This document shows, piece after piece, positions 28,988 to 47,384 of a stretch of 58,366 nt of DNA. This stretch comes from a virus. Within the stretch, counting starts at the first letter, position 1, and the number at the start of each line of letters is the position of its first letter. The notes beneath the pieces are model-generated. The model worked only from the letters and a program-made list of their open reading frames with translations, was not told the DNA's origin and did not search any database. The DNA lies in IMG/VR virus record IMGVR_UViG_3300029288_006769, positions 1-58,366 of that record. One strand, written 5' to 3'. A program made the translations under genes and the position numbers.

Positions 28988-29329
28988 TCACCGTTTTGCC
29001 AAAACTGCTGCAACTTTATGGTGCAACGCCAACATACCCCGTATATCCTTAGCTGTCAGTCTGTGTGCAAACGGGTATTGATAAGCATCACCGAGTGGCA
29101 GGTGTATTAGTACTACCGGGGCTAAACTTACAATTATGTAGCGGGCATCTCCGTCAGCCACGCCAAAACTGATTTCTTCTCCGGCTTCGGGCCATTTACC
29201 ATGCTCCTTTGCCCAGGCTTTCACCTGCTCAACAAAAGCATGTTCTCGTATTACGTTCTCTTCTCTGGGCAACTTATGGTCCCATTTGGGAGCCTCGATA
29301 CCTTTTGGTGGGTCATATACTTTCCCCAT
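28988..29329 (-). CDS. hypothetical protein
   Basis: Track ORF with motif after 29329. Confidence 0.5.
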   Translation of the reverse strand: MGKVYDPPKGIEAPKWDHKLPREENVIREHAFVEQVKAWAKEHGKWPEAGEEISFGVADGDARYIIVSLAPVVLIHLPLGDAYQYPFAHRLTAKDIRGMLALHHKVAAVLAKR

Positions 29330-29391
29330 TATCCCTCCTTGTTATTTGCTATATCGCGTGCTGCTCATGGTTCTGCCTATACCCGAACCAC

Positions 29392-29613
29392 TCATAATCG
29401 CAAACAAGAGACTCGCACAAAATTCCTGCCTGTCTCGTACGCTCTTACTGGCTTGCCACATTTCGGGCAAATTTTGGGTGGCTCTAACTGGTCAGGCCAT
29501 GTTACATAGCGACAAGAGCTACAAATTAGCTGGTGGTCAACATGCCCACCATACGCCTTCTTGTCATATTCAAAAAGTTTACCACCACATTTCGGGCAAA
29601 TCAAGTCGCTCAT
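29392..29613 (-). CDS. zinc-ribbon protein
   Basis: CPKCGGK...CSSC...CPKCGKP provides two CxxC pairs. An ATGA overlap links it to the upstream gene. Confidence 0.45.
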   Translation of the reverse strand: MSDLICPKCGGKLFEYDKKAYGGHVDHQLICSSCRYVTWPDQLEPPKICPKCGKPVRAYETGRNFVRVSCLRL

Positions 29614-29843
29614 AATGCTTCTCCAGCTGCTTGTTCGGCATTTGACATGTCAGCCAAATGTTTGCCACGCTCAATAAAAAAACGTACTTGATCCCTGTAC
29701 TTCTTGGGTATTGTGTCCCAAGTCTCTCGGATCCGCACCACTTCTTCGACTTTGTCAGTCCAGTGCGTAAATTCGTCAGCCTCATGTATGGGTAATCCCC
29801 AACTATTCTTGGGCTGATAATCGTCTTCTTTTTTCCGTTTCAT
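29610..29843 (-). CDS. hypothetical basic protein (77 aa)
   Basis: Internal start MKRKKEDDY is supported by an ATGA overlap. Confidence 0.4.
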   Translation of the reverse strand: MKRKKEDDYQPKNSWGLPIHEADEFTHWTDKVEEVVRIRETWDTIPKKYRDQVRFFIERGKHLADMSNAEQAAGEAL

Positions 29844-30202
29844 TTTTCGTACTCCGGCTTCCACATTACAAAGTTCAAGTACTGCTGCTCAGTCCACTCG
29901 TACTCAATATCATTGCCGAAAGTCAACTGGTACTGTACAGCTTCAACAAGCGTATCATGCACTGCTTTTGTATAGGTTATCCCATACCTTGGTATGTTTT
30001 CACGCAGCCCGCTCGCCAAACTACAATTTATAAGGTATAGGATTTTATGGTTAGGCATGTCGAGCAAAGCGACGATCATGTTAGCCACTTTATGTGCCAA
30101 CTCAATCATTACCTGTGGTATTGCTTCAGGGTGCTCAAGGTCAATCCCACACCCAGCCAAAAAAACCTCGCACAACCGGCTACGTTCATTTTGCGTGTTC
30201 AT
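29840..30202 (-). CDS. hypothetical protein (first of a three-gene coupled operon)
   Basis: Motif after 30202. Its TGA overlaps the next ATG. Confidence 0.5.
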   Translation of the reverse strand: MNTQNERSRLCEVFLAGCGIDLEHPEAIPQVMIELAHKVANMIVALLDMPNHKILYLINCSLASGLRENIPRYGITYTKAVHDTLVEAVQYQLTFGNDIEYEWTEQQYLNFVMWKPEYEK

Positions 30203-30296
30203 ACTCTCTCCTTTATTACTCTAACCATATCGTGCGCTCAAAACAAAAAAGCCAAGGTTACCCCTGGCTCATTTTATACTTGTTAGTTCTTTATTT

Positions 30297-31211
30297 CTAA
30301 AAGTGTCGTTTAAATTCTTTTGCATTGTTTAAACCAACCAAGTAATCTTGAGCAGCTTTAAGCGTCAAGCTATGCGTACCCTGGAAACTCACATACCGTA
30401 TTTCAACTTTGTTACCCTTGTGCGTTGCACTGGCGCCAAATAACGGCTGGTGCTCTCCTTGTTGCTTATTCCAGGGTGTCGCTTCCCATGTTCTCAAGTG
30501 TCCGTTTATTGCGTCAGCAACTTCCATAGCACACATCCCGTATACATCCTTAGTCACACGTGCTTTCGGCTTGTACCCGGTCACTACTGGTGCTGCACTC
30601 TTGTCTGCAAGTAAATTGCTTGCTTCACCTACCGGCAACAACTTAACCAGGGTACTCTCATCCACGTTCAACCCGTGCTGAGTCTGCAAAAATACTCCCA
30701 GTTGGCAAGCAACCTGTGTTTGCATTGTGCCCAGTTCCTCTTCAGCCTGCTGCACAACGAAATCGTCATTCTCGCCAAAATGGCTCAATATGGTATCAGC
30801 CTGCGACAAAAAGTCTTCCAGTTTCCTCTTACCAGCACTCCCACCAGCCACAGCCTCGTACAAATCTTTCTTCAAGTCGGCTATCCTGCTGCGCAGCTCC
30901 TGGCGGCTATCTCCCAAGCGCTCTTTCATCCGGCTCCGCACCGTTTTAGGCCGCTCAACTTGCTCCGTTATTATTTGGCCATCAAGCCCACGGTAACGCT
31001 CCAGGGTACAGGGCACCTCGCCATTGTACATAAGTGTACGGGTCATCTGCTCAAAAGTGAGCGCCACCCTTGCCACCAGCCTGCCATCAGGGTCTTTTAT
31101 TTCCATGCTTACGTAGTGGTGCTGGGGTACCATTGCTCCATTGAGCCAGCTACCACTGCTGCTGGTCATGGTCATACACACTGTGCTTGTTTCTTTGCCT
31201 TCCAATTTCAT
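30297..31211 (-). CDS. hypothetical protein (304 aa)
   Basis: Track ORF with an ATGA overlap to the upstream gene. Confidence 0.5.
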   Translation of the reverse strand: MKLEGKETSTVCMTMTSSSGSWLNGAMVPQHHYVSMEIKDPDGRLVARVALTFEQMTRTLMYNGEVPCTLERYRGLDGQIITEQVERPKTVRSRMKERLGDSRQELRSRIADLKKDLYEAVAGGSAGKRKLEDFLSQADTILSHFGENDDFVVQQAEEELGTMQTQVACQLGVFLQTQHGLNVDESTLVKLLPVGEASNLLADKSAAPVVTGYKPKARVTKDVYGMCAMEVADAINGHLRTWEATPWNKQQGEHQPLFGASATHKGNKVEIRYVSFQGTHSLTLKAAQDYLVGLNNAKEFKRHF

Positions 31212-31486
31212 ATTAGGTCCCTCTCTCCCTGTTCGTAAATACGAAAATCAGTTTCCTCTCGTGCAATTTCATCAAGCGTAGTTTCGAGCTGCTTAAGCAT
31301 TTGTTCAGCCGCTCGCTTGTCAGCAGCTATACGCATACACTTGTCGTATCGTTCACTGGGCATACACGGCCTGCACGTATCAAACTGGCATGTTTCAAAC
31401 GTAAGTATGTCAATTTGAGTAATTTCGGGCAGTGCCTCAGCCGCCTGCTGCGCTCTCATTTCGCGTTCGTTGCTGTCATCCCACAT
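31208..31486 (-). CDS. hypothetical acidic protein
   Basis: Motif after 31486. It is coupled to the downstream 304-aa gene. Confidence 0.5.
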   Translation of the reverse strand: MWDDSNEREMRAQQAAEALPEITQIDILTFETCQFDTCRPCMPSERYDKCMRIAADKRAAEQMLKQLETTLDEIAREETDFRIYEQGERDLI

Positions 31487-31655
31487 AACAACTCCTTGTT
31501 AGTTGCTATATCGTGTGAAGCCAGGCTCCTTACCAGGTCATGTTCTTAAACACCTGGCGGTGCTTGCCAAAACCGAAATCCAAATAAACCACGCACTTGG
31601 GCTGCATCTTAAAAAACTTACGTACCTGTGCCATAACTTGCTCCTTGTTTAGGTG

Positions 31656-32744
31656 TTACTTGCCACATATTTTCTTTATATCAGGTTCGGGCACCCATAT
31701 GCCCTGGTATTTTGTCAACTCTCCATTGCACTTAAATAATAACTCTCCAGCTCCTTTAAGGCGCTCAGCCCCCGGCTCATCAAGTATTATGCGACTATCT
31801 TGTCTGCTCTCTACTCTAAAAGCCACCCTTGCTGGCATGTTAGCCTTTATCAAACCTGTCATTATTTCGACTACCGGGCGCTGTGTTGCCATTACAATAT
31901 GCATACCAGCAGCCCTTGCCAACTGTGCCAACCGAGTTATTTTATCACTTATTGTCTTGTCTTCGCTCTGCATCATCAAGTCAGCCACCTCATCAATTAC
32001 CAAAACTATATATGGTAACTTTGTTTTGGCTACTTGGTTATATGCATCAAGAGATTTAACGTCGTGCCTTGCAAGCAACTCATACCGGCTCTCCATTTCG
32101 TCTACCAAACTACTAAGCAAACCGCTTGCTTGGTCAAGTTTAGTAGCTATAGGTGCATACAAGTGCGGTACGCTCCGGTACAAAGCAAACTCAACCCGTT
32201 TTGGGTCAACCAATGCGAGTTGCACTTGCTCCGGCTGTAATTTATACAACAAACTCAGTATAGCAACGTTCAAGAAAACAGATTTACCCGAGCCAGTAGT
32301 ACCGGCTACCAATAAATGGGGCATACGGCTCAAATCAATTACCTTGTTTGCGCTCAATACTACTGGCAACCGCTCATTTGCTATATGATTAAAGGTTGTT
32401 ATGCCCGTAAAATCAAGTGGAGTGGCATTAACTACAGGAGTGCTAACGTCTGGTGTAGTTGATGCCACTAAATCTGCAGGAAACATTATCAAATACTTGC
32501 TCACTTCAAAATCAATCTCTCCTATATATTTAAGGTCGCGCTCAATTTTATCAAGCTTACTCGCTATCATCCCTACGTTCACACGTTTTATGCGCTCTAC
32601 CTCGTCCTCCACCTCACTATAATGTAACCTGGCCTGCATTTGCCTTATGTCTAACGGGCTCGCGCCGCACCCTACCATGCTACTCAACGTTTTACACAAC
32701 GCCCGGTCAACTTTCAAAGTTTCCAATATCTCCTTAAGATTCAT
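31656..32744 (-). CDS. FtsK/SpoIIIE-family DNA-translocase-like ATPase
   Basis: Walker A LLVAGTTGSGKS, Walker B IVLVIDEVADL, then MHIVMATQRP and NMPARVAFRVESRQDSRIIL. The motif follows 32744. Confidence 0.7.
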   Translation of the reverse strand: MNLKEILETLKVDRALCKTLSSMVGCGASPLDIRQMQARLHYSEVEDEVERIKRVNVGMIASKLDKIERDLKYIGEIDFEVSKYLIMFPADLVASTTPDVSTPVVNATPLDFTGITTFNHIANERLPVVLSANKVIDLSRMPHLLVAGTTGSGKSVFLNVAILSLLYKLQPEQVQLALVDPKRVEFALYRSVPHLYAPIATKLDQASGLLSSLVDEMESRYELLARHDVKSLDAYNQVAKTKLPYIVLVIDEVADLMMQSEDKTISDKITRLAQLARAAGMHIVMATQRPVVEIMTGLIKANMPARVAFRVESRQDSRIILDEPGAERLKGAGELLFKCNGELTKYQGIWVPEPDIKKICGK

Positions 32745-33194
32745 AGTCGCTCCACATGGGTTATTGGTTTACGTAGCGTTATATCGTGCGCTTTTCCTTA
32801 ACTAACCAAAACATACATGCTAAATACTCGCCAGGGTACTATACCCATGTTTACCCTATACACTATATCGTGTGCTATATTGCTGGCAGCCACAACACAC
32901 CCGCCAAAAATTGTACCCTGCCAAAACTATAACAAAACAGTTAAACAGCGCGCACAAGCAGCCAAATAACAACTCTAACACACTAAAAGCTATCTAGCGT
33001 TGTAGCGCTATCACCACATGAATTACAAGATTTAGAGCAACCTACTTGTGGAATTTACTAACATATTTACTAGCATAAAAGGTAGGAATATAGCACAACA
33101 TATAACTCATACAAAAAGAGCGGAGCAAACCGTGGTAGCACTCCATAAGTTCACCCCGCCCAGTATTGCATAAGAGTTACGAAAGGAGAAGCTC

Positions 33195-33611
33195 TTACGC
33201 AAAATATTTGGTTACCAACTCGTTCAACTCGTCCTGGCTGGTCACTTTCCCCAGCATACGCGTTTTCCCCAGGTGGTTCTTCTTCGCTTCTTCCTCGCTT
33301 ACTGCTTTAAAACCCTTCAACCCGGTTACCTTATGGGTCAAACCCACACTGGCTCCACGTACCCACATACGTTTCTCTCCGGCTTCTGCCGTAATTACGT
33401 ACTTGGTCTCATTCACGGTCACGCCCTTGGTTGCCTTAATTTTCAAAGGCTCCTTCTTCACACGCGGCTGCTTTGCCTTCTTGTCCTTGTCTACCGGCTT
33501 AGTCTGCTTGGGTTCCGGTTTTTTCCCTGTTGCGGCTTTCTTCGCCATTTCGTCTTCTCCTCCTACCGGCTGCGTATCTCCCGCCTCCGGAATCGTTCCT
33601 GTATCGCCCAT
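33195..33611 (-). CDS. Lys-rich hypothetical protein (possible nucleic-acid binding)
   Basis: Track ORF. The motif AATTTATATCGTGCACTC lies upstream. Confidence 0.45.
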   Translation of the reverse strand: MGDTGTIPEAGDTQPVGGEDEMAKKAATGKKPEPKQTKPVDKDKKAKQPRVKKEPLKIKATKGVTVNETKYVITAEAGEKRMWVRGASVGLTHKVTGLKGFKAVSEEEAKKNHLGKTRMLGKVTSQDELNELVTKYFA

Positions 33612-33702
33612 ATCGTCAACTCCTTCTAGAAAATCAGTTGAACTAGCATCTACAGCATAAATTTATATCGTGCACTCAATATTATGTCTTTTATTTTACA
33701 GT

Positions 33703-33933
33703 TTACCCAGCAAATCTATGTGCAGCCTCTATCTCTTCTCTGCTCAATATACTCTCTTCCTTATAAACTATAACTACCGGCGCTCTATCCTCCTCCAACC
33801 CAGTATTATAAGCAACACACTCTACTACATGCAATGCCTTCTCAAAGCGCTCCTGATATAGCCGCGCCTCTTCTCTCCCAAACTCCTTATTCACCGCAAG
33901 CAGCTCCCTCAATTTTTTCGTTTCTATCAGCAT
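33703..33933 (-). CDS. hypothetical small protein
   Basis: Track ORF coupled to the upstream gene. Confidence 0.4.
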   Translation of the reverse strand: MLIETKKLRELLAVNKEFGREEARLYQERFEKALHVVECVAYNTGLEEDRAPVVIVYKEESILSREEIEAAHRFAG

Positions 33934-33935
33934 AA

Positions 33936-34148
33936 CTATTCCTCCTGCTGCTCACACACGTGCGCAACAAACTTGTCCAAATTTATCTCTTCGTTCAACT
34001 TATCTTCATTCCCTCTATACTTACACCCTTTACACTTTTTATCAGCTCCCGGCTCCTTACAAAACGAAAGCCGAAAGATAATATTCGTGGCAAACAAACC
34101 ACAACGATACTCCTTCTCCCACCTACGCTTTCTTTTCATACTACTCAT
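33936..34148 (-). CDS. Cys-rich basic small protein (71 aa), leaderless candidate
   Basis: Internal start MSSMKRKRRW. The promoter core CGATAT runs directly into ATG with no SD. Confidence 0.35.
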   Translation of the reverse strand: MSSMKRKRRWEKEYRCGLFATNIIFRLSFCKEPGADKKCKGCKYRGNEDKLNEEINLDKFVAHVCEQQEE

Positions 34149-34439
34149 ATCGCCCGAACATCTATTACATTGCCAACACAGAACGACACCTAGCAGACGC
34201 ACGCGCCTGCACGCGCTACGCGCGTACGCGAAGCTCTCGAGTTTTTCAAACTTGCTCGATATGCCCGAGCCACAACCAACAAAAAACAAGCAACAAAAAA
34301 ACTCCCTCAACAACCAGCCACATGCCCGACACACCCGAGCAAACTTGCATAACTATTTACCAGTGCACTTGAATGCGCATATACGCGCTTGCAATTCTCA
34401 TATACATTATGCGTTCTAGAACACGTTTATAGGGTTATA

Positions 34440-34582
34440 GGAACTGAACAGCAAAAACAGGGCCCTAGTTTCTTATAGCTGTTCAGTCTTATAGCCGTTC
34501 AGCATAGCTGCTCAAGCTGTTCTCTTAGCGGGTTCTGTTTAGCTGCTCTCGTTCTTTAAGCTGTTTAAAGCCGTTTTAGGTC
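34440..34582. promoter_or_regulatory. divergent control region with inverted and direct iteron-like repeats; candidate origin/early promoter hub
   Basis: GAACTGAACAGC and AGCTGTTCAGTC form an inverted pair. Six to seven degenerate direct copies of TAGCTGTTCAG follow. The region lies between the minus-strand array and the plus-strand block, exactly where the strand compositional bias flips. Confidence 0.45.
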
Positions 34583-34717
34583 TTGTATAGTTGTTCTACC
34601 ATGTTTTGTAGTGAGTTTGTTGTTTCCTTTTTTGTTTGTTTGGATGTCGTGTGTTTTTTTTTAGATTGCCATGTTTTTATAGTTTATAATTTCTTGTTGT
34701 TGAATGGGGGGTTTTGT

Positions 34718-35551
34718 ATGTTTGAGCGTAGGGAGTTTCGTGTTGGTTGGTTGCGGGCGTGGTGGGTGTGGTGTAGGGAGGTAGATCGAGTTAGTAGGTG
34801 GAGGGAAGTTGTAGTTATAAAGCGTAGGCTTGAGTGTGAGTTGGTAGAGCGGGCGTTTGTGCGTATGAATAGGGTTGGTTGGACGGCGATGTTGGGTTGT
34901 GATGATTATGACCGGTGTGTTGAGTTGGGCGTGAGTTTGAATGTGGCTGGGGTGCATTTGGTGCGGGATGGTAGTGTGGGGCGTGGTTGTACGTGGTGGG
35001 AGGCGCCGGTGGTGGTTAGGGAAGCAGCTGGTTTGGAGCCCTTGTATGGGCATGTGGGTAGTAGAGCTGTAGGTGTTACAGGTATGCAGGGTGTGACTGG
35101 CGCGGGAGGGTTGTGGGATAACCGTAATAATGACGTTTGGTATGAGCCTACATTACGTGGTACTGGTTTTGGGGATATAGTTGAGCCTGTTGCAATAGGT
35201 GACGTTAGTTATGCTGATTATTTTGGTGGTAGGCCGGTGGAGGTGCAGGTAAGTTTTGACGTGGTTAAGAATAAGCAGTTAGTGGAGCAGGGCCCTAAGG
35301 TTAATAGGCGTATGGGTTGGGTGGTAAATGAGCGTATAGAGCAGCAGCCCAAGCCTGAGCAGCCAGTAATGGGACAGCATATAGAGCAGCCGGGGTGTGT
35401 GCATACAAAGCCCGTTGTAGTGGCACACCCGTTGGTGAGCGACCCGGCTGCAAGGGTTAGGGCCCGTTGGGCTGAGTTATTGCGGTTAGCAGACGCAACA
35501 CATAATGAAAACGAGCGTACTGGTGATGATACCCGTGAGCAGGGTGCATAG
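34718..35551 (+). CDS. hypothetical protein encoded by an extremely C-poor reading frame
   Basis: A ~280-codon open frame in DNA with ~6-10% C. Stop codons need no C, so chance ORFs should be ~9 codons. The likely start is MFERREF; the track ORF's upstream F/V/C-rich 45 aa are probably leader. Confidence 0.45.
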   Translation: MFERREFRVGWLRAWWVWCREVDRVSRWREVVVIKRRLECELVERAFVRMNRVGWTAMLGCDDYDRCVELGVSLNVAGVHLVRDGSVGRGCTWWEAPVVVREAAGLEPLYGHVGSRAVGVTGMQGVTGAGGLWDNRNNDVWYEPTLRGTGFGDIVEPVAIGDVSYADYFGGRPVEVQVSFDVVKNKQLVEQGPKVNRRMGWVVNERIEQQPKPEQPVMGQHIEQPGCVHTKPVVVAHPLVSDPAARVRARWAELLRLADATHNENERTGDDTREQGA

Positions 35552-35907
35552 AGGGTGATATATAGATAGTTGGGTATGAGCCGTGAGGAGGAGTTATGTT
35601 GTGGGAGAGCTTGAAGCGTTATTATTTGTAGTTGATTTGCACTATACAGAGCATGCCGTTGATAAGCTTGTAGATAAGCTTGACTTGACAAATTACGCTA
35701 TGGTGCGTATGAAGGAGGAGGGTGGATATGCGCAGGTTTAAATAGTGCAAGCTGCTGGCCATAACCCTGAGTTTTATGTAGTAGAGTATAGAGTGTGGTT
35801 TTTGTTGTAGTTGTGGTAAAAATAGTATACCAATAGATATAACCATAGTAAGCAGCTTGAAGTAGTGGGTAATATGTATGATAACCCAGAGTTGAGGGAG
35901 CAGGTAG

Positions 35908-36102
35908 TTGGGAAAGAGTAGTGAACCAATTAGAATGTGGACAGTTTTAAGTGATTGTGCAATATGCCATATTACCGTGCCGGGGGCGCCTTATTTGAGT
36001 ACTGATATTAGGTATACGCTTGACGAATATAAACGCATAATGGAGTATGAGTTACGCCAGCAGAAACGGAAGCGGCGAGCACATAGCACACATTTTAAAT
36101 AA
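35908..36102 (+). CDS. hypothetical small basic protein
   Basis: Track ORF with SD GGGAGCAGG. Confidence 0.35.
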   Translation: MGKSSEPIRMWTVLSDCAICHITVPGAPYLSTDIRYTLDEYKRIMEYELRQQKRKRRAHSTHFK

Positions 36103-36111
36103 GGAGTTTTT

Positions 36112-36267
36112 ATGCAGTTTGGTTGCGGGCATAGCATAGTAAAGTGTAAGGCATGTGGTAAGGTGATAAGCCAGTGCCGGTGTTTGAATGCAAATAAGCC
36201 GGTGGTGTGGAGCGTGTGCGACAAATGTAAGGCTGGTGTTGACCCTAAGCAAGAGGTAAGGGGATGA
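36112..36267 (+). CDS. zinc-ribbon micro-protein (51 aa)
   Basis: MQFGCGHSIVKCKACGK...CDKCKAG with SD AAGGAG. It is not in the ORF track. Confidence 0.35.
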   Translation: MQFGCGHSIVKCKACGKVISQCRCLNANKPVVWSVCDKCKAGVDPKQEVRG

Positions 36268-36270
36268 GCT

Positions 36271-36549
36271 GTGTGCGTGATAACAAGAAAAGCAGATGAC
36301 GTAGTGGTGAGCATTAGTTTGATACCTGGGTTAGCCAGACTGATGAATGATAGATTACAGGGTGGGCAGTATGTGTTGTTTTGCGAAGATTGTGCCCGTA
36401 AAGCTGGATTAGAGAGCAGTTTTGAAAATAGTATTATAGGCGTGATAGCAGGACAGGGCGTGTGTTGTCAGGGTTGTGATAGGGATATAGGTGGTAGAGA
36501 TGTTTATTTGCCCGATAAGCGTTTGAAATTTAAGTGGATAGCAAAATAA
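36271..36549 (+). CDS. small protein, member 1 of the C-terminal KFKW(L/I)A family
   Basis: It ends ...DKRLKFKWIAK. Its non-ATG start is inferred from the track. Confidence 0.45.
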   Translation: MCVITRKADDVVVSISLIPGLARLMNDRLQGGQYVLFCEDCARKAGLESSFENSIIGVIAGQGVCCQGCDRDIGGRDVYLPDKRLKFKWIAK

Positions 36550-37167
36550 ATGTTGAGTGAACGTTGTAAGTATTGTGTGCATAGAGATGATAATGAGAGG
36601 GTTTCACACTGGCAACAAAATTTTAGTTGTATAAAGTGTGCTGGTTTGAGCAGCTTGGTTTTTTTTAAGTTGGATAGAACACAGATTAATAAAACGGTAG
36701 TTGAAAAACCAAGGCCAAGTGCTGCTGGACGGTTCAAGTTTGTGTTTAAGGATATGTATGATGAGAAGAAGCAAGACGATAACCGTAAGCAGTACGTACA
36801 GGATTTAGTAAACAAGTTAGCTGCTCTACATCGTAGCCAGTTGACACGGTTTGTAGGTTTGTTAGAGCGCATAAAAGAGTTTAAGGATGTGGAGCCGTGG
36901 CAGTGGGTGTGGTATGACTGTGATAACCCGATAACATGGCCAGAGCTCGGTGTGCCCGTGCTTGTTATGGTAGGGCAAGCTTATAACCGGTATTATATGG
37001 TTTTAGAGCGCAGGGTGTTAGAGCGTAATGGGAGTGTGGATAAGTGTTGCTGGTTTATGCATGTTGAAAATTGGTTTTTGCGTGACGATATGAACGTGGT
37101 GTGTTGGTGTTTAATAGGCCCACCGCCCGTATTACCTGCACCAGTGCCGACAGCGATACCTATATGA
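36550..37167 (+). CDS. hypothetical protein
   Basis: 205-aa track ORF whose ATG abuts the preceding TAA. Confidence 0.45.
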   Translation: MLSERCKYCVHRDDNERVSHWQQNFSCIKCAGLSSLVFFKLDRTQINKTVVEKPRPSAAGRFKFVFKDMYDEKKQDDNRKQYVQDLVNKLAALHRSQLTRFVGLLERIKEFKDVEPWQWVWYDCDNPITWPELGVPVLVMVGQAYNRYYMVLERRVLERNGSVDKCCWFMHVENWFLRDDMNVVCWCLIGPPPVLPAPVPTAIPI

Positions 37168-37376
37168 ATATACGTAAACTAGCAAGACGTAAACCGGCAA
37201 CAAGAATAGCTGTACCAGAAGAGGTAAAAAGTAAAGTAATACGTGTGCGTGTAACTGAGCAAGAATTTAAGACAATATATAGTGCTGCTAAACAGCGTGG
37301 AGTAACAGTAAGTATGTTGTTGATTGAAACTGTATTGAAAAAAATAAAAAGGGAGTTAAAAAATGGATGTGCTTGA
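37164..37376 (+). CDS. ribbon-helix-helix (CopG/MobC-like) DNA-binding protein
   Basis: KVIRVRVTEQEFKTIYSAAKQRGVTVSMLLIETVL fits the RHH beta-alpha-alpha pattern. An ATGA overlap gives the start at MNIRKLARRK. Confidence 0.45.
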   Translation: MNIRKLARRKPATRIAVPEEVKSKVIRVRVTEQEFKTIYSAAKQRGVTVSMLLIETVLKKIKRELKNGCA

Positions 37377-37521
37377 TGGTATTGAAAAGTTTGCTGACAG
37401 AGTGGGTAAGCTATTTGGGAGTAAGGGGTGGGTGATAAAAGCATTTGTTATGTTTGCGTGCGTGCTTGTGTGTGGCGGGTTGATAGTGATAGGAGCACTT
37501 GCAAAGAAGGATAGCAAATGA
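37363..37521 (+). CDS. 52-aa single-TM membrane micro-protein
   Basis: MDVLDGIEKFADRVGKLFGSKGWVIKAFVMFACVLVCGGLIVIGALAKKDSK. Its ATGA overlaps the next gene. Confidence 0.3.
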   Translation: MDVLDGIEKFADRVGKLFGSKGWVIKAFVMFACVLVCGGLIVIGALAKKDSK

Positions 37522-37733
37522 GTGCTGACAATAGCGAAATGATGAAGGAGCTGATAGAAGCACTTTGTTTTTATGCTGACCCTGATACTTATTTTGCTAT
37601 AGGTTTTTTTCCTGATTTGCCGTGTGGTGAGTTTATTAAAGATTTTGACGAGTCGAAAAAGCCTGGAGCAAGGGCCCGTAGTGTAATAAAAAAATACCAA
37701 GCAGAGTTACAGGGGTTATATGACGATAGATGA
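37518..37733 (+). CDS. hypothetical small protein
   Basis: Track ORF in a coupled series. Confidence 0.4.
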   Translation: MSADNSEMMKELIEALCFYADPDTYFAIGFFPDLPCGEFIKDFDESKKPGARARSVIKKYQAELQGLYDDR

Positions 37734-37989
37734 TGGCGAATATTACAGTGCGATACCGTATGTGCAGCTACGTAGACGCAGGGTAAGGCAGCCTGAAAAG
37801 AAGGAAATACGGCTTGACGTTGATGCATTTAGACAGGAGTTGCTTGATAATATAAAGCAGAACCCAACACAGATAGGTGATAAGCATATTGTAATGTGTT
37901 GGCCTGAGACAGAATCAACACGCCGTGTAAGGTTGAAGAAGTTTTTAGAAAAGCGTTTTTGTGTTGCGCCCTTGTTTAGACGAGGATGA
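37720..37989 (+). CDS. hypothetical small basic protein
   Basis: Track ORF. Confidence 0.4.
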   Translation: MTIDDGEYYSAIPYVQLRRRRVRQPEKKEIRLDVDAFRQELLDNIKQNPTQIGDKHIVMCWPETESTRRVRLKKFLEKRFCVAPLFRRG

Positions 37990-38122
37990 TAGCAATATAC
38001 ATGTGCGCTGGTTGTTTGAAAAGACTGAAAATGGTTTTTTGGTGGCAGGTTTGAGTTTGTGAAAGCAGAGAAAAGGGTACAAAAGCAGCAAATTGAAAAA
38101 AATAAATTGAGGTTTATAGTTA

Positions 38123-38302
38123 ATGAAAACTGAGGAAGTGATAAGTGCTTTGAGCGAGGCTTGTAAGTGTGGTGATAGTGCAGGTTTGCGGCAGTACCAC
38201 CAGCAGACAGCACCGCATATAAGTTATGTTGAGTGGCTTGAACGTAGAGTAGTTATATTGACTGAGTATATAGTTGAGAAAGCATTGAAAGAGCAAAAAT
38301 GA
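38123..38302 (+). CDS. hypothetical small protein (59 aa)
   Basis: MKTEEVISALSEACKCGDSAGL... Its ATGA overlaps the gene at 38299. Confidence 0.3.
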   Translation: MKTEEVISALSEACKCGDSAGLRQYHQQTAPHISYVEWLERRVVILTEYIVEKALKEQK

Positions 38303-38697
38303 CCATAGATGATTTGTGGCGCCCAAAGCCGAATCTGTGTGTGGCAAAAGATCTTGACGTCGAAATGTATTATGAGGACGTAATAAGTTGTATACAGAGT
38401 AACCCAAGGCAGAATGAAAATAAGGACCGTGTGTTGTGCAGGTACCAGAATCGAAATGTTTTGTTGGTTAGGTTTGTTAGAGAGGGCTATAATTATTTTA
38501 TTTTGAAGACATGGGGCTTTAAGGAAGCTTGTTCTGATTTTAGTATCAATTATAAGTTGTTGCATGTGCGTTGGGTGTTAGAGTATAGAGCAAGGCCCGA
38601 TGATATAGGTAGGTTTGAGTTGGTGAGAGAAGATGATGGAGATAGAGTGCAAGTGAAAGAGCAGCCTAAAATGAAGTTTAAGTGGCTGGCAGAATAG
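38299..38697 (+). CDS. small protein, member 2 of the C-terminal KFKW(L/I)A family
   Basis: It ends ...EQPKMKFKWLAE. Confidence 0.45.
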   Translation: MTIDDLWRPKPNLCVAKDLDVEMYYEDVISCIQSNPRQNENKDRVLCRYQNRNVLLVRFVREGYNYFILKTWGFKEACSDFSINYKLLHVRWVLEYRARPDDIGRFELVREDDGDRVQVKEQPKMKFKWLAE

Positions 38698-38709
38698 AAA
38701 GTTTGACAA

Positions 38710-39303
38710 ATGGCACGGCTTGGTGAGCGTAAGAGTATACGGTTAGAGAGCAATGATGGATTGGCGACTATAAGAGCAAACTTGTTAGCTGACCCGCAGC
38801 AGACAAGCCGTAGGAAACTTATGTTTGGGAAAAGCACTGGTATAACCTATGCTAATTTTAGTTTGCCGGTTTGGTTAAAGCGCGGGTATGAGTTGTACCG
38901 GGTGCGTAATAGTATAATCGAGTGGGACAGCACGAGCCGGACGTTTAGGTTAGTGCCCAAGGTGACAATGGATACATTGGTGGCTACGAGCGATGTGACT
39001 AAGAATAAGTTTAAATGGTTAGTTGATGAAACATTGGTTACATTAAAAAACCGCGATTTGGGTGATATAAGTAATGATATCCATCGATACTATGATGTAA
39101 TTACAAAGCCGCCAGCGACAAAGCCTTCAAGTGGTGGACAGTCGATACCTTGGAATTATATAACAACAAGCGAGGTGAATACGAATCCGTGTAATTGTTG
39201 TGGACTTTATGAGGTTTGTGAATCTTGTTGTGATGCTCAGTATCGTTTTGTATTTGACGATAGACCCGAGCCAAAGCCTAAGTTTGCATTTGTGTTTGGG
39301 TGA
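38710..39303 (+). CDS. protein with an internal KNKFKWLVDE and a C-terminal PKPKFAFVFG (family member 3)
   Basis: The motif occurs twice in one protein. Confidence 0.45.
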   Translation: MARLGERKSIRLESNDGLATIRANLLADPQQTSRRKLMFGKSTGITYANFSLPVWLKRGYELYRVRNSIIEWDSTSRTFRLVPKVTMDTLVATSDVTKNKFKWLVDETLVTLKNRDLGDISNDIHRYYDVITKPPATKPSSGGQSIPWNYITTSEVNTNPCNCCGLYEVCESCCDAQYRFVFDDRPEPKPKFAFVFG

Positions 39304-39306
39304 GTT

Positions 39307-39585
39307 ATGTGGACTGTGCGTGTAAATGATGGTTTTTGTACATGGGAGTATGAAATGACAGGTGAACATAGTAGCGTTGCAAATACAAGTATAGCTAATG
39401 TGATTAATGCAATTACTAAGAATACTGGTTTGATAGTTACAAAAGCTACTTTTATTAATGCAATTGAGCCGCAACAAGTGGAGTCGCAGGTAGACAAGCA
39501 GAATAAGCAGAACATAAAGTTTAAAAGTGGAAAAATAGGTGACCCAAAAATAAATGTAAAGTTTAAATTTTTAGCACAGGAGTGA
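39307..39585 (+). CDS. small protein, member 4 of the family
   Basis: It ends NIKFKSGKIGDPKINVKFKFLAQE. Confidence 0.45.
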   Translation: MWTVRVNDGFCTWEYEMTGEHSSVANTSIANVINAITKNTGLIVTKATFINAIEPQQVESQVDKQNKQNIKFKSGKIGDPKINVKFKFLAQE

Positions 39586-39588
39586 AGT

Positions 39589-39900
39589 ATGGTAAAAGAG
39601 ATAGTGGAGAATTTTGCAAAGAGTGGTGTGTCCCAGGCTGCTTTAGAGCGTATACTTGATTTGGGCCAGGGAGATTTGAGCAAAGAAGAGACGCCAGAAA
39701 TGATAGCTCTTATGCGTATTGTGGCGACATATCCTTGGTTGCTTAGTGTAGCTGAGCATCATTATGACGAAAAGTATGCAAATAGAGTCGTGTTGCATGT
39801 GGGTGTAGATGCATTGCTCGATATGCAAGAGCAATTAGCAGGTAGTGAGTGCAAGTGCGAAAAAGAGCAGCCAGCAAGTGAAGATGCAGGTAAGAGCTAA
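39589..39900 (+). CDS. hypothetical acidic protein
   Basis: Track ORF with SD AGGAGTGAAG. Confidence 0.45.
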   Translation: MVKEIVENFAKSGVSQAALERILDLGQGDLSKEETPEMIALMRIVATYPWLLSVAEHHYDEKYANRVVLHVGVDALLDMQEQLAGSECKCEKEQPASEDAGKS

Positions 39901-39928
39901 TTTGCATTGATTTTATTTTTATTATAGA

Positions 39929-40390
39929 TTGCGCGCAAGCGCGCACAGAGAGGGATTAGTAGTCATGTGGTTGGATACATTTAATGATACTGAAATAAAT
40001 GTAGGCATATGTGAAGCTTGTATGCAGGAGTTTTTCCCTGATGATAAACTTATGGAGAGTGCTGCTTCTTATCTGTGCCCTATATGTATGAGTGTAATTC
40101 AAGTAAGGGGCAAGATGGGCGTGCTTAAGTTGAGGAAAAGCGTATTTGAAGCACTCATGAACACAAAAACTAAACGTTTTATATTGTGCAAGCGTTGTGC
40201 TGACAGCAGGAATTTAACCAGCGAGAATATGACAAGTCCGTTCACAGACAAAAACAAGTATGTATGTCGGTTGTGTGGTAATAAAGAGGGACATGCTGAA
40301 TATATGTTGCCGAATAAAGAAGCAGATTTGTTGTTGAGAAAAAAGAACTCGAAAACAATTGACAAGTTAAAATTTCGTTTTATACAGTGA
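39929..40390 (+). CDS. multi-CxxC zinc-finger protein
   Basis: CEACMQE...CPICMS...CKRCAD...CRLCGN gives four CxxC pairs. Confidence 0.45.
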   Translation: MRASAHREGLVVMWLDTFNDTEINVGICEACMQEFFPDDKLMESAASYLCPICMSVIQVRGKMGVLKLRKSVFEALMNTKTKRFILCKRCADSRNLTSENMTSPFTDKNKYVCRLCGNKEGHAEYMLPNKEADLLLRKKNSKTIDKLKFRFIQ

Positions 40391-40397
40391 GTGTTAA

Positions 40398-40703
40398 ATG
40401 GCAAGAATTTGTGGCAAGCGTGGTAGAGCGATACCGTCAAGTAAGGTTTTTTGTTTCGATTGTGAGGTGAGCATGTTGGAGAAGCAGAAGAGCCCTGATG
40501 AAGAATTGAGAATGAGAGCCAATGAAATAATGTTGGGTTCAAAAGGTTTCATGTTGTTTGCTGTTACTCATTCTGGCGCAATAGAAGCTGTAGGTGATAC
40601 AACTAGACTTACGACAGTAGAACAACTTGGACTTGAGTACTATGTGCAAGAATTTAATCCGATTGAAATTGATGAAGACGAAGACGACCGAGCACCTTTT
40701 TGA
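40398..40703 (+). CDS. zinc-ribbon protein with an acidic tail
   Basis: ICGKRG...CFDCEV and a C-terminal IEIDEDEDD tract. Confidence 0.4.
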   Translation: MARICGKRGRAIPSSKVFCFDCEVSMLEKQKSPDEELRMRANEIMLGSKGFMLFAVTHSGAIEAVGDTTRLTTVEQLGLEYYVQEFNPIEIDEDEDDRAPF

Positions 40704-40715
40704 ACAGGAGAAAAT

Positions 40716-41213
40716 GTGGCTCTAGCTTTAAATATAGGTTGCCATGACATACATATTGCTGGTATGGTAAATGTAGACAATGACGCAGCAATGAAGCCTG
40801 ATTTGTTATTAGATTGTACGAAATTGACAAGCAAGTTTGAAAAGAACAGCGTTGATTTTGTGTATGCCGGGCATTTTTTTGAGCATTTTGATGTGCATGT
40901 AGGCAAACAAATTGTAATCGATATTTTTACTATATTGAAGGATTATGGTGTTCTAGTTGCTACAGTACCAGATTATACAAAATGTTTTGGTATGAAGATT
41001 GAGGAAGCTGAGCGAATTATTATAGCAGTGGGTACCCATAAGGTACTTATGAACATAGATAGATTGAGAGATTATTTGTGTTGTGCTGGTTTTAAAACTG
41101 TGGTACAAGCAAAGCCGAGTGAGTTAGCACATTGTCCGTTTCCTAATGTAGAGTGGCAGACAAGTATAATAGGCATAAAGCACCCGCATATAAATTTCCA
41201 TGGTATAGCATAG
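40716..41213 (+). CDS. class I SAM-dependent methyltransferase-like protein
   Basis: LNIGCH resembles motif I (LDxGCG-like) and VDFVYAGHFFEHF resembles a post-II motif. The size and pattern fit the Methyltransf_11/23 families. Confidence 0.45.
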   Translation: MALALNIGCHDIHIAGMVNVDNDAAMKPDLLLDCTKLTSKFEKNSVDFVYAGHFFEHFDVHVGKQIVIDIFTILKDYGVLVATVPDYTKCFGMKIEEAERIIIAVGTHKVLMNIDRLRDYLCCAGFKTVVQAKPSELAHCPFPNVEWQTSIIGIKHPHINFHGIA

Positions 41214-41812: not shown

Positions 41813-43393
41813 TTATAAAGATAATGAAATTAGTTTGGGCCTGATTTTTGTATCCACCAGGACAATTTTTGTTTGTGCTGTGGCCGGGTATTTTGTGTTT
41901 GTTATTACTTTGAGTGATGCAAGTTCTCCCATGAGTGCACCGTCATAGGTGATTGTTACCAGGTTGCTGGTGTTTGCCTGGAATTCCGAGTTGTTGATTT
42001 GATGAATTGCACCCTGTAATGACGAACCTGCTCTGAAAGCGTAAGTTGCACCACCTGAACCGGCAATATGGATATAACCTTTGAACAAGCCAGGCCAACC
42101 GATTTGCCAGAGTTTCCCGCCGTCTTTTACGTAGAGCAACGTAGTAGAACTCGAGCTTGATTCGTACCAGTTACTGTTGATGCTCAACTCTTTGCTTACT
42201 ATGAAAATTACTTTGCCGGAAAAGATGCCCTGAACATCAGCAGTATAGAATGTTGGTACCGAATTGGAAATGGCAACAACCAGATAACCATTCCAAAGTT
42301 GATCGGCTGGTGTGTTGTCGTATGCATTTTGCAAGTTGGTACCGTTGAGTTTTGTGAAACCTAACGTTGAGAATTCTTTGATTTTATCCGAGGAAATTGT
42401 TGTCATGTTGATTATCGTTGCGTTTTCATTACCGCCTGAGATGTCAACATAGTCACTGATATTGAAGGAGCCTTTGTTTTCAAGAGCAGTGAGATTTTGG
42501 AATTGAGAAGCCATGCAACTACCTGAATGATAGGCTTTGTGGTTTTTCATGTCGACTTTGAAGGTGCCACTGATACTGTTCGTAAAGTACCCTTCTCCAT
42601 TGATATTGAGCGTGTTGAGCAGTTCAATATTTCTTTTGAAACCTGCTTTACCATTGACATCAAGTGAAGAGTTTTGCAATTTTACGGGCGTTTGGAAATA
42701 GGCATTTCCGTTAACAGTGAGTTGCCCGTTGAATTCCGTAGTAGTTCCATTGTCCCCGGTTTTGAGATAGCCGTTGATGATCGAGCCCGAGGCGTTGGAA
42801 TTGAACCGAACGCCACCACCGAAGTAGACATTGCCGTTGACGGTCATTTTCTGGTTGAAGTCGTAGCCGTCTTTCTGGATGTAGATTGCAAAGTCCTGTA
42901 CGGATGGTCGGTCAAATTCGGTACCGTCGAGTTGGTATGTTGCAACGGCTGTTTTTTTCTTGCCTGAAAATTGACCATAGCCGTTTCCTTGAACTATGAT
43001 ATGCGGGATGTTGTAACCGCCGTCACCTAATGCTTCACCGATTCCAAGAATGCAGACTGAAAATTTGGCTGGGTCGGTGACATTTGTGCTCATCGAGATT
43101 TTCTGTTCGCTTGAAGGGTCCGCCGAAAGGAGCCATTTTTTCGATTTTTCGGTCAGGTAATTGTTCATTACCGTTATCGATTCAACGGATTTCTTTTCAA
43201 GTTGGGTTTCGCAGGCTTTAACCGCAGTCGAAGCAGCCTGGTATGCGGAACGTGTTTTCCCTGCGTTTGCAACATTTGTCCTGTCATAACCGACCGTTTT
43301 GAGCATGACAGCGCCGGTAATACCGACGACGCAAACGAGACAAAGGGTGTAGACAATTGCGGCTGAACCGCGTTGATTGTTAAAGTTGAACAT
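41813..43393 (-). CDS. PilX-like type IV pilus minor pilin / assembly protein
   Basis: The N-terminus NNQRGSAAIVYTLCLVCVVGITGAVML resembles the PilX_N consensus (QRG followed by a hydrophobic helix). It is the last gene of the pilin-like operon. Confidence 0.35.
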   Translation of the reverse strand: MFNFNNQRGSAAIVYTLCLVCVVGITGAVMLKTVGYDRTNVANAGKTRSAYQAASTAVKACETQLEKKSVESITVMNNYLTEKSKKWLLSADPSSEQKISMSTNVTDPAKFSVCILGIGEALGDGGYNIPHIIVQGNGYGQFSGKKKTAVATYQLDGTEFDRPSVQDFAIYIQKDGYDFNQKMTVNGNVYFGGGVRFNSNASGSIINGYLKTGDNGTTTEFNGQLTVNGNAYFQTPVKLQNSSLDVNGKAGFKRNIELLNTLNINGEGYFTNSISGTFKVDMKNHKAYHSGSCMASQFQNLTALENKGSFNISDYVDISGGNENATIINMTTISSDKIKEFSTLGFTKLNGTNLQNAYDNTPADQLWNGYLVVAISNSVPTFYTADVQGIFSGKVIFIVSKELSINSNWYESSSSSTTLLYVKDGGKLWQIGWPGLFKGYIHIAGSGGATYAFRAGSSLQGAIHQINNSEFQANTSNLVTITYDGALMGELASLKVITNTKYPATAQTKIVLVDTKIRPKLISLSL

Positions 43394-44933: not shown

Positions 44934-45227
44934 CTATATAGGTATAAATTCATCCTTATAACCTAATAGCATTCCTTCAGGGAAGCCTATGTTGCGGAGT
45001 CTTGCTAAAACAAAAGCAAACTGATGTTGTTCTGGTAACTCTGGAATTTCATATTCCAAAAGTTTTTCTATATAAACACGAGCTTCTTTGGGAGAGCATG
45101 TTTTGGGAAATAAAAACTTGAATTTTTTGTAATACTTTATTTTTTCGACTTTTTTTCTTTTTTCAAGGGTATCTTTGAATAATAGATATGAAATAAAAAA
45201 ACAAATTAATGCTAGTGCAATAGACAT
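44934..45227 (-). CDS. small membrane protein
   Basis: N-terminal TM segment IALALICFFISYLLF. Confidence 0.35.
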   Translation of the reverse strand: MSIALALICFFISYLLFKDTLEKRKKVEKIKYYKKFKFLFPKTCSPKEARVYIEKLLEYEIPELPEQHQFAFVLARLRNIGFPEGMLLGYKDEFIPI

Positions 45228-45237
45228 AGTTTACTCG

Positions 45238-47332: not shown

Positions 47333-47384
47333 CTTGCAAGGACAATAATGATGGTTTTGAGTGCAAAGTCTCCATTCATATTAT

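Follow-up and report, generated by a model that had tools for sequence, protein, structure and literature searches.

A divergent promoter–repeat hub in an uncultivated huge phage lies between two arms with strand-specific depletion of C, A and 5′-TC-3′

The DNA analysed here, referred to as the window, is a stretch of 58,366 nucleotides (nt) (IMG/VR record IMGVR_UViG_3300029288_006769) out of the ~422 kb of an uncultivated huge (~420-kb) phage. Two blocks of genes, here termed the left and right arms, diverge from a conserved control site at 34.43–34.60 kb, the hub, and on both sides of it the sense (outward) strand is depleted of C and A and enriched in G and T, reversing the genome's usual codon bias. 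The same bipolar pattern accompanies the hub in six related lineages, and in five of the seven the outward strand has also been stripped of the dinucleotide 5′-TC-3′. The reading we favour, at a probability of roughly 45%, is that the outward strand, whether as non-template or as displaced strand, is recurrently single-stranded at divergent early promoters, possibly at an R-loop origin of replication. The locus is best filed as an extreme, local form of known strand compositional asymmetry, anchored on a divergent promoter–repeat hub.

Compositional switch at 34.45 kb

The two arms are as follows (C3 and G3 denote C and G at third codon positions, and GC3 skew the GC skew there; most gene coordinates derive from an open reading frame (ORF) heuristic).

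34592..41213, plus strand: right arm, 15 small co-oriented genes (C3 4–14%, 9.2% pooled after the first gene; coding GC3 skew +0.23 to +0.69)
28988..34425, minus strand: left arm (declining coding GC3 skew; sense TC observed/expected 0.34)

Plus-strand GC skew per kb lies between −0.18 and −0.33 over 29–34 kb and between +0.31 and +0.42 over 35–41 kb; its sign flips at 34.45 kb, and the change is completed within ~150 nt on the conserved hub. The original prediction, made from the letters of the window, had described C-poor, G+T-rich coding strands on either side of 34.44–34.58 kb, and the step from −0.33 to +0.42 is stronger than it had stated. The sliding-window comparison that it proposed as a check also bears it out, the block lying well above the average outside 29–42 kb in the window (mean |skew| 0.09, standard deviation 0.07, maximum 0.35). 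Plus-strand C, put at 6–10% over 34.6–35.5 kb, is indeed 9.4% in 34501–35000 and falls to 6.0% in the lowest 300-nt window (from 34601), but is 11–16% further right. Adjoining the hub, A (14%) and C (9%) are both low and T (40%) is high. The mirror-image depletion of plus-strand G, predicted for 31.5–34.4 kb, is present over 31.5–34.5 kb at 12.6–20%, although at third codon positions the left arm extends back to ~29 kb. The expected decay with distance holds for the left arm, where coding GC3 skew is +0.88 and +0.45 beside the hub, +0.33 in the gene for an FtsK/SpoIIIE-type protein and +0.11 at 29 kb, but not for right-arm GC skew, which keeps its level as far as the change of gene orientation at 41.3 kb; it is the depletion of TC that instead decays smoothly there.

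Most of the bias resides in third codon positions. Right-arm C3 is 9.2% and G3 27.8% (GC3 skew +0.50, against +0.34 in the left arm), and this C3 of 9% compares with 0.283–0.300 (~0.30) in neighbouring control gene sets. In the remaining gene sets of the window, on either strand, C3 ≥ G3 and coding GC3 skew is −0.07 to −0.39; positive values on the coding strand occur as a run of genes only in the divergent block at 28.99–41.2 kb. Among the classes of site, non-coding DNA is skewed most (C 6% in the right-arm leader), third positions come next, and first and second positions are least affected, second positions being shifted too.

An extremum of cumulative skew at ~34.5 kb had been put forward as support for an origin. 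A minimum does lie at ~34 kb, but the local block alone produces it and no replichore-wide pattern was found: the skew fades within 2–11 kb, and beyond the block third-position sign tracks gene orientation. A strand-linked (replichore) model, prompted by a plus-strand G3 excess in the convergent genes at 41.4–47 kb, was rejected as a general explanation: across the genome, genes on either strand normally have C3 ≥ G3 on their coding strand.

The sequence of the skewed locus was recovered in six independent assemblies and is therefore not an assembly artefact. An identical FtsK/SpoIIIE-type protein (31656–32744, minus strand) is found on six public contigs, including one of 422 kb (JGI 3300037067, Ga0378408_0000018), on which the window spans ~238.4–296.7 kb and the hub lies at ~272.9 kb; at 98.9–100% identity these are the same phage and hence uninformative on conservation. 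No close relatives were found in GenBank phages, PLSDB plasmids or IMG/VR. Relatives were accordingly taken as a graded series of FtsK homologues, yielding eleven further lineages (L007–L013 and L061–L064), and the FtsK gene served as the anchor for all between-lineage comparisons. Ordinary divergent junctions in the window, L009 and L012 showed no strong skew.

The bias follows the hub among relatives

Grouped by the presence of the hub, the lineages behave as follows.

Hub present, TC-depleted (window, L007, L011, L061, L062): bipolar skew yes; TC loss yes
Hub present, not TC-depleted (L010, L063): bipolar skew yes; TC loss no
No hub near FtsK (L008, L009, L012, L013, L064): bipolar skew no; TC loss no

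Near a hub, GC3 skew of the FtsK gene is +0.85 in L010, +0.68 in L011, +0.62 in L007 and +0.33 in the window, compared with +0.15, +0.13, −0.14 and +0.19 in four hub-less lineages; L061, L062 and L063 add three skewed lineages with a hub, and L064 an unskewed one without. Within L010, GC3 skew declines with distance, from 0.85 in FtsK and 0.83 in DUF932 to 0.52 in rIIA and 0.24 in rIIB, and even the amino-acid usage of its conserved FtsK has moved toward GT-rich codons. These are shared genes: FtsK, DUF932 and rIIB are present in all relatives with contigs that extend that far, rIIA and a 304-amino-acid (aa) protein in most, and gene order is mostly as in the window (L062 has rIIB before rIIA). 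NCBI files the L010-type FtsK under a 'Candidatus Nanoarchaeia archaeon' metagenome-assembled genome (MAG); its gene context in L010 (rIIA, rIIB, DUF932) suggests a phage contig misbinned into an archaeal MAG.

The arm without FtsK is 6.7 kb long in the window, ~2 kb in L010 and ~3 kb in L062, and each stops where the outward unit meets convergent genes. In L010 and L062 it includes stretches of 1.3–2.9 kb with few or no called genes and plus-strand G of 8.5% (L010 7082–8430) and 9.2% (L062 2032–4900), which may represent a long GU-rich, C-poor non-coding transcript or merely eroded DNA. The possibility that the 1.3-kb non-coding arm of L010 is a decayed copy of the first right-arm gene of the window, which encodes 277 aa, was discarded for want of any similarity.

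The skew is not uniform along an arm. DUF932 (window 28053–28931, minus strand; L007 7019–7897; L062 7729–8607) is less GC3-skewed than neighbouring small genes, as is rIIB in L062, where NTC depletion is equally strong. Either more frequent recombinational replacement of these genes, or resistance to the part of the bias that does not involve TC, could account for this.

Keto shift and loss of TC

Two layers can be distinguished. The first, replacement of amino by keto bases (C to T and A to G) on the outward 5′-to-3′ strand, is present in 7/7 skewed lineages. Codons of the form NNC drop relative to NNT in the arms, and G3/(A3+G3) for Lys/Glu rises from 0.31/0.25 to 0.58/0.61 in the window and from 0.18/0.17 to 0.67/0.75 in L010. 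The original prediction had described the bias as loss of C; C is lost, but the A-to-G replacement is as large, and in five lineages C has been lost mainly where it follows T, which had been missed.

This second layer, strand-specific loss of 5′-TC-3′, affects 5/7 skewed lineages. Sense-strand TC observed/expected is 0.25 in the right arm and 0.34 in the left, compared with 0.93–1.13 elsewhere in the window; sense-strand GA is normal (0.91–1.00), GC and CC are not depleted (CC observed/expected in the arms 1.13–1.51), and the depleted strand switches at the hub. All three codon registers are affected:

NTC/(NTC+NTT): right arm 0.08; left arm 0.16; control 0.58
Serine codons, TCN:AGY: right arm 14:70; left arm 6:49; control 184:117
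TC across codon junctions (positions 3 and 1), observed/expected: right arm 0.27; left arm 0.31; control 0.84

After A, C or G, third-position C/(C+T) is 0.19–0.24 in the right arm and 0.39–0.50 in the left. Fisher p values for the loss of TC range from 1e-5 to 3e-36, those of the within-arm NTC tests being 1e-5 and 2e-9. From 35 kb onwards, plus-strand TC observed/expected per kb is 0.00, 0.17, 0.08, 0.21, 0.43, 0.51, 0.59, 0.70, 0.81 and 0.95 (0 TC in 35001–36000, where 37 are expected), and the minus strand left of the hub shows the mirror-image gradient. The loss is equally plain in L062, with NTC counts of 1/51, 0/15, 3/39, 1/53, 0/18 and 2/130; its rIIA has 2 NTC and 128 NTT codons.

Every flank of TC is equally depleted, TCA no more than TCT, TCG or TCC; neither DarT-type TNTC nor APOBEC TCW specificity was seen. 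Avoidance of palindromic restriction sites is ruled out by the normal frequency of GA on the same strand, and ultraviolet damage with transcription-coupled repair by the fact that TC is not depleted genome-wide. Nor is the loss a codon-usage artefact, since it extends to all three registers and L010, though poorer in C, has kept its TC. Being independent of frame and confined to one strand, it points to an agent that reads nucleic acid, not codons. L007, which has lost TC, and L063, which has not, come from the same samples, which suggests an agent tied to particular hosts or phage lineages.

Anatomy of the hub

The elements of the hub and its immediate surroundings are:

34426..34454, minus strand: leftward sigma-70-like promoter core (−35 TTGCTG at 34449–34454, 17-nt spacer, −10 TATAAA at 34426–34431, upstream T-tract)
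34444..34454, minus strand: inverted copy of the repeat unit, TTGCTGTTCAG, overlapping the −35 and spacer of the leftward promoter in an operator-like position
34459..34468, no strand assigned: conserved palindrome CAGGGCCCTAG (GGGCCC) between the two promoters
34476..34597, plus strand: ~9–10 degenerate direct repeats resembling TAGCTGTTCAG, core AGCYGYTY
34564..34591, plus strand: candidate rightward promoter (TTTAAA, 16 nt, TATAGT), a consensus scan match only
34592..34717, plus strand: untranslated leader of the right arm, T-rich (AT 0.68–0.75), holding the 6% C minimum
34200..34232, minus strand: CG-rich palindromic element CGCGTACGCGCGTAGCGCG... in the left-arm leader, with Cs retained within the C-depleted strand

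The leftward promoter was read by eye from an alignment of four lineages (window, L007, L011 and L010); its core is kept in all four and in L061, with a spacer of 17–18 nt and a −10 of TATAAA/T/C, and the promoter scan omits it because that scan demands a −10 ending in T. TAGGGCC does not vary across the alignment and is found in L061 and L062 too, the core motif of the hub taking the form TAGGGCC-N3-TTTTTGCTG. Scans of sequence collections with this motif returned 22 matches in IMG/VR, all unrelated coding sequence without skew, and 25 in metagenomes, of which two (L010 lineage) were skewed and the other 23 were chance matches without skew.

Both the inverted pair and the six to seven degenerate direct copies that had been noted at the switch point are present. 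The arms of the pair, at 34443–34457 and 34473–34487, are 87% complementary, and AGCYGYTY has seven plus-strand matches in 34477–34576 (starting at 34477, 34493, 34506, 34515, 34541, 34559 and 34569), where ~0.01 are expected per 100 nt (27 matches, both strands, in the 58-kb window). To these come 2–3 further degenerate copies and the one inverted copy. Units are ~11 nt long and irregularly spaced (9–26 nt). The presence of the repeats in related phages, proposed as a further check, was confirmed with a qualification as to sequence: arrays with differing unit sequences occupy the same place in L007, L010 and L011. The inverted copy co-varies with the direct repeats, lineage by lineage, as expected of the binding site of a lineage-specific protein, and the array probably binds a regulator. 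No protein co-occurs strictly with the hub among the compared loci. In L007 the hub (2130–2175) also contains a perfect (GAAACTTT)x5 tandem repeat.

To the right of the array, the T-rich stretch at 34580–34700 reaches an AT content of 0.75, within the top 0.2% of 60-nt windows in 13–45 kb, and runs of three or more G number 33 per kb in 34592–35591, compared with 9 in controls. To the left, downstream of the leftward promoter, the CG-rich element (CGCGTACGCGCG / GCGCGTATAAGCGCG type) recurs in 6/6 hub-bearing lineages read, these being all but L063: besides the window, L007 (2340–2380), L011 (925–945), L010 (9655–9685), L061 (995–1040) and, in two copies, L062 (5133–5165 and 5314–5345). In the window and L010, and visibly in L062, it comes after a GT-rich non-coding tract; its placement relative to the small genes varies. 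An Rfam scan of 33.5–36.3 kb gave no match.

Discussion

Recurrent exposure of the outward strand would fit the order of the site classes, the two deamination-type changes, the gradient away from one point and the fact that the bias comes and goes with the hub. We propose that transcription runs both ways from back-to-back promoters, set about a palindrome and regulator-binding repeats, into mostly small, early-looking gene blocks, and that the non-template strand on each side would thereby become single-stranded again and again, through transcription bubbles and R-loops. A T-rich leader followed by a G-cluster zone may help R-loops to form, and these might prime replication as at T4 origins. 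Deamination, of C to U and of A to hypoxanthine, is far faster in single-stranded than in duplex DNA. Damage to the single infecting genome copy would pass to much of the burst, and the fact that early transcription acts on that one copy could explain why only the hub block is affected. Over evolution the exposed strand would gain G and T and lose C and A, chiefly near the hub and at unconstrained sites, and in five lineages a second, context-specific agent, either a TC-preferring cytosine deaminase of single-stranded DNA (ssDNA) or an ssDNA nuclease, would have removed 5′-TC-3′.

Three causes had originally been offered, namely transcription-coupled loss of C, selection on mRNA composition and a replication origin. 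The peak at synonymous and non-coding sites, the gradient away from the hub and the unbiased orthologues of hub-less lineages favour a local process on the outward strand, by transcription or from an origin. As this strand is both the non-template strand and the one displaced by leading synthesis, sequence alone cannot fully separate the two. The polarity expected of transcription asymmetry, starting at a promoter and following the sense strand, is seen on both arms. A basis in transcription and R-loops is favoured because the best-conserved part of the hub is the promoter, because the unequal arms without FtsK each end at convergent genes, because the succession of promoter, T-rich leader and G clusters is R-loop-prone, and because no initiator gene is evident.

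Comparable asymmetries are known elsewhere. In vertebrate mitochondrial DNA (mtDNA), single-stranded exposure of the heavy strand leads to C-to-T and A-to-G change, extreme synonymous G+T content and a gradient with exposure time; that pattern is unidirectional, genome-wide and without dinucleotide specificity, whereas the phage pattern is bipolar and local. Transcription-associated C-to-T change on the non-transcribed strand is known from Escherichia coli, bacterial effects of this kind being small; in the phage the effect is near saturation and has the extra TC layer. Ginno et al. (2013) reportedly described GC skew of CpG islands at R-loop promoters. The phage locus resembles such promoters in its non-template G excess from the promoter onwards, in the exposed strand as mutational target and in its hybrid-favouring G clusters.

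Transcription and replication may also coincide, for which phage T4 provides precedents. At oriF and oriG a promoter is combined with an A+T-rich unwinding element, and a lasting R-loop formed by the transcript leaves the non-template strand exposed; oriE relies on an early promoter and contains clustered direct repeats of 12 nt; and T4 origins sit at transcription divergence with a shift in nucleotide compositional bias, for which no magnitude is given (PMC3016281). The candidate rightward promoter (34564–34591) followed by the T-rich leader (34592–34717) is similar in arrangement to oriF and oriG, as a sequence match only. The phage shares rIIA and rIIB with T4-like phages; its likeness to their origins is one of layout. 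It differs from them in the skew, of 0.4–0.8 over 2–11 kb and in two outward arms, in its conserved GGGCCC/promoter core and in the G-cluster zone that follows the AT-rich leader.

The TC layer is most reminiscent of APOBEC3 footprints in human DNA viruses, which consist of local, strand-specific depletion of NTC relative to NTT at the lytic origins of Epstein–Barr virus (EBV) and at adenovirus ends; the EBV genes BHLF1 and BHRF1 flank oriLyt and show bipolar depletion on the displaced or lagging-template strands that is absent from the complement, and preference for 5′-TC is the hallmark of APOBEC3-type ssDNA deaminases (PMC7449416). In the phage, likewise, NTC is depleted relative to NTT and to the other NNC/NNT pairs, strand-specifically and in bipolar fashion. 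The differences are a prokaryotic host, for which no counterpart enzyme was found described in the literature, a far deeper depletion (0 against 37 expected per kb) and the large A-to-G shift. Moreover, the polyomavirus footprint affects synonymous NTC only, sparing TCN and NNTCNN (PMC7449416), whereas in the phage NTC, TCN and codon junctions are all hit. A nuclease would be another candidate. Endonuclease IV of T4 (denB) is a dC-specific ssDNA endonuclease that prefers dTdCdA (PMC2095790), and a denB-like agent from a T4-type phage, attacking C after T in ssDNA, could select against exposed TC; the equal depletion of TCA, TCT, TCG and TCC is unlike that preference. We regard as speculative, and on present evidence doubtful, the proposition that a bacterial, phage or competitor agent acting on 5′-TC-3′ in ssDNA, whether APOBEC-like deaminase or denB-like nuclease, left its footprint in huge phages. 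T4 protects itself by modifying cytosine rather than by depleting it. Cytosine-modification genes, which had been suggested as something to look for, are absent from the window, as are recognisable deaminase and replication genes.

A number of observations weigh against our reading. The sequences show the hub, its conservation and a bias set by strand, site class, distance and hub; early timing, R-loops, origin activity, deamination and a TC-specific agent are inferred from them. Known transcription-associated asymmetries are far weaker than this, and effects of similar size are not otherwise known except from strand-displacement replication, for example in mtDNA. The lesser skew of DUF932 and rIIB relative to their neighbours, in the window, L007 and L062, means that exposure alone does not set the level. 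Substitutions polarised among near-identical strains comprise 2 C>T and 12 G>A near the hub, giving no sense-strand C-to-T excess, although this spectrum has no power, covering 53 left-arm sites and only 4 single-nucleotide polymorphisms (SNPs) in the right arm, and skew-saturated outgroups bias parsimony towards ancestral G and T. Plus-strand TC is slightly low (0.59–0.81) for ~2.5 kb past the end of the right arm, as might be expected if the process were tied to the DNA strand rather than to transcription; the synonymous-junction test for TC there equals the control (0.90 and 0.90). No TC-specific ssDNA deaminase acting on phage DNA was found in the literature, including a 2026 review of bacterial defence systems in which DNA deaminases appear solely as editing tools. 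Finally, the APOBEC3 footprint study reports no evidence for transcription-linked editing (PMC7449416).

Replication by itself could be responsible if the hub were a protein-initiated bidirectional origin, iteron-type or other, with the promoters incidental; the displaced lagging-strand template would then stay single-stranded over the first few kb, until lagging-strand synthesis is established. An origin would give the polarity observed (a cumulative-skew minimum, outward strands rich in G and T), a direct-repeat array adjoins an AT-rich stretch, and the magnitude and keto signature recall strand-displacement systems such as mtDNA. The TC gradient of the window passes the 41.3-kb orientation boundary without a step. 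The nearest footprints, at EBV oriLyt and adenovirus ends, are ascribed to replication initiation and not to transcription (PMC7449416), and T4 offers both the iterons of oriE and origins placed at transcription divergence with compositional shifts (PMC3016281). That the skew is local (2–11 kb), with third-position sign following gene orientation outside the block, is difficult to reconcile with such an origin, as are the unequal arms (~2 and ~10 kb in L010, ~3 and >11 kb in L062), the short ones stopping at convergent boundaries. The repeats have short units (~11 nt) at irregular spacing, and conservation within the hub is highest at the promoter. DnaA boxes do not cluster at the hub, none lying within 1 kb of it and matches in the window being fewer than by chance. 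No initiator, helicase, primase or polymerase gene is recognisable beside the repeats, nor does one co-occur with the hub; in particular, the adjacent Rep gene of an iteron origin was sought among the flanking proteins with Pfam, PHROG and PADLOC and not found. On balance we think it rather unlikely that replication alone produced the skew.

Selection could also act on RNA, C-poor and UC-free early transcripts escaping Rho, or a UC-preferring endoribonuclease or sensor, before any counter-defence exists. Rho loads on C-rich, G-poor RNA through YC-binding pockets that take both UC and CC. Only 1.1% (right arm) and 6.4% (left arm) of sense-strand windows of 78 nt have C>G, against 27–74% in other gene blocks; on the arms' antisense strands the figure is 92–98%. 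Rho-dependent terminators are reported to be absent from regions that have no C>G bubbles, and CC and UC dinucleotides to be predictive of them (PMC6144790); by published criteria the sense strands, with 1–6% of such windows, would be poor Rho substrates, the exact opposite of Rho utilisation sites, and the antisense strands ideal ones (PMC6144790). Selection of this kind accounts for the fall of C and the rise of G together, and accommodates differences between genes within an arm more easily than uniform exposure does; depletion is strongest in leaders and long non-coding arms, where RNA is without ribosome protection, and the arms stop at the ends of transcription units. Evasion of Rho would, however, not require the low A (14%) and high T (40%) beside the hub, and CC has not been specifically lost (right-arm NCC is as common as NAC and NGC, and CC at junctions is 1.24–1.68 of expectation). 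L010 and L063 are equally or more skewed without depletion of UC, a gradient along one operon is no obvious prediction, and evasion of Rho presupposes a host with Rho. We therefore consider RNA-level selection unlikely as the cause.

Least probable, by a long way, is that the block is foreign DNA of other composition, or that its early genes are tuned to a different tRNA pool. The GC mosaic of the window (33%, 45%, 35%) and the lineage-specific ORFans of the right arm might suggest as much, as might the contrast between a near-invariant right arm and a left arm ~3% different among strains, which suggests recent recombination. The left arm, however, consists of syntenic core genes (FtsK, the 304-aa protein, DUF932, rIIA and rIIB) whose skew is set by distance from the hub, in seven lineages; the hub is an exact mirror point of the polarity; skew peaks in non-coding DNA; and TC loss is frame-independent, hence not codon selection. 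As the bias tracks the hub and not the gene, foreign origin and gene-specific codon adaptation are excluded as its basis, and this account is largely refuted.

Should recurrent exposure at the hub be the cause, and the skew a record of single-strandedness, base composition could locate early transcription units or origins in metagenomic phages, and GC3 skews of up to +0.85 and a TC-free kb would mean that DNA damage before replication contributes heavily to phage evolution. With its promoter core, palindrome, repeats and CG-rich element, the locus can be recognised as a regulatory or initiation hub in huge uncultivated phages, for which no mapped origins or early promoters are known. The TC layer points to a context-specific attack on ssDNA or RNA, of which none was found described for phage DNA; the footprint may be new for phages, no description of one in a phage having been found. 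If an ssDNA agent is indeed at work, this would be the first prokaryotic counterpart to the APOBEC3 footprints at origins of human DNA viruses, would allow early single-stranded sites in phage genomes to be mapped from sequence, and would mean that a hub with skew and no TC loss (L063, compared with L007) reflects differing hosts or counter-measures. Loss of TC in some sister lineages and not in others is a natural comparative handle on the agent.

Genes of the two arms and other features of the window

34718..35551, plus strand: first right-arm gene, 277 aa, start ATG at 34718, product rich in V, G, R and W
37164..37376, plus strand: NikA-like ribbon-helix-helix (RHH) protein (Pfam PF21983, E = 3e-7), within the right arm
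33936..34151, minus strand: first left-arm gene, small Cys-rich protein (~71 aa), homologues in L007, L011, L061, L010 and L063
31656..32744, minus strand: FtsK/SpoIIIE-type ATPase, 362 aa (Pfam PF01580, E = 6e-51)
25048–27225 and 23076–24161, minus strand: probably the rIIA/rIIB pair as in T4, a 725-aa HATPase_c protein adjoining the rIIB homologue

An ORF of ~280 codons had been predicted to stay open through the most C-poor DNA. It is a real gene, whose N-terminal domain is conserved in two relatives (54% and 48% identity), but it starts at 34718 and encodes 277 aa, 34592–34717 being leader. The protein has no Pfam, PHROG or PADLOC match, and its gene is absent from L010; the L007 homologue (597–1463, minus strand) contains a low-complexity (GYA)n insert. 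The right-arm genes are ORFans specific to the lineage of the window. Among them, the RHH protein, singled out in the original prediction as a possible ligand of the repeats, is specific to this lineage's right arm and was not found in the other loci, and no link between it and the repeats was found. Apart from this protein, the flanking proteins belong to no recognisable replication or DNA-binding family (Pfam, PHROG, PADLOC).

Homologues of the Cys-rich protein also occur in the hub-less L008, L009 and L012. The neighbourhood further encodes, besides the T4 rIIB homologue and the 725-aa HATPase protein, a DUF932 protein and many small ORFans. A plasmid, integrative and conjugative element or oriT reading, based on FtsK, DUF932 and the NikA-like RHH protein, was ruled out by the 422-kb phage contig with rIIA and rIIB.

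Between near-identical strains the right arm differs by 4 SNPs in 6.7 kb, the left arm by ~3% (from L002) and the sequence beyond 29 kb by ~7%, a pattern suggestive of mosaic recombination or of a right arm that swept recently. GC content of the window changes stepwise, from ~33% (1–12000) to ~45% (13000–45000) and ~35% (45000–58366); as the 45%-GC segment is far longer than the skewed block, the skew process is not enough to account for the step.

The standard genetic code fits the window despite the presence of a tRNA with a CUA anticodon. This tRNA (1278–1350, minus strand), the only one in the window, is of amber-suppressor type and is called tRNA-Pyl by ARAGORN; ORF lengths give no sign of TAG recoding, and alternative codes, tried for stop-codon recoding in general, brought no gain in ORF length. 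Just beyond the right arm, a phage protein with an N-terminal prepilin methylation motif and a PilW-like domain (43405–44508, minus strand) adjoins a conserved 526-aa protein (41813–43393, minus strand) with an orthologue in L009. Unusual cargo elsewhere comprises a GNAT acetyltransferase (888–1277, plus strand), a Na+/Ca2+ exchanger (6591–7607, plus strand), a weak FokI D3-like domain (16200–16607, minus strand), a DUF7487 protein whose match to a C2H2 zinc finger is weak and below threshold (53466–54392, plus strand) and a class-3 lipase (55217–55999, plus strand).

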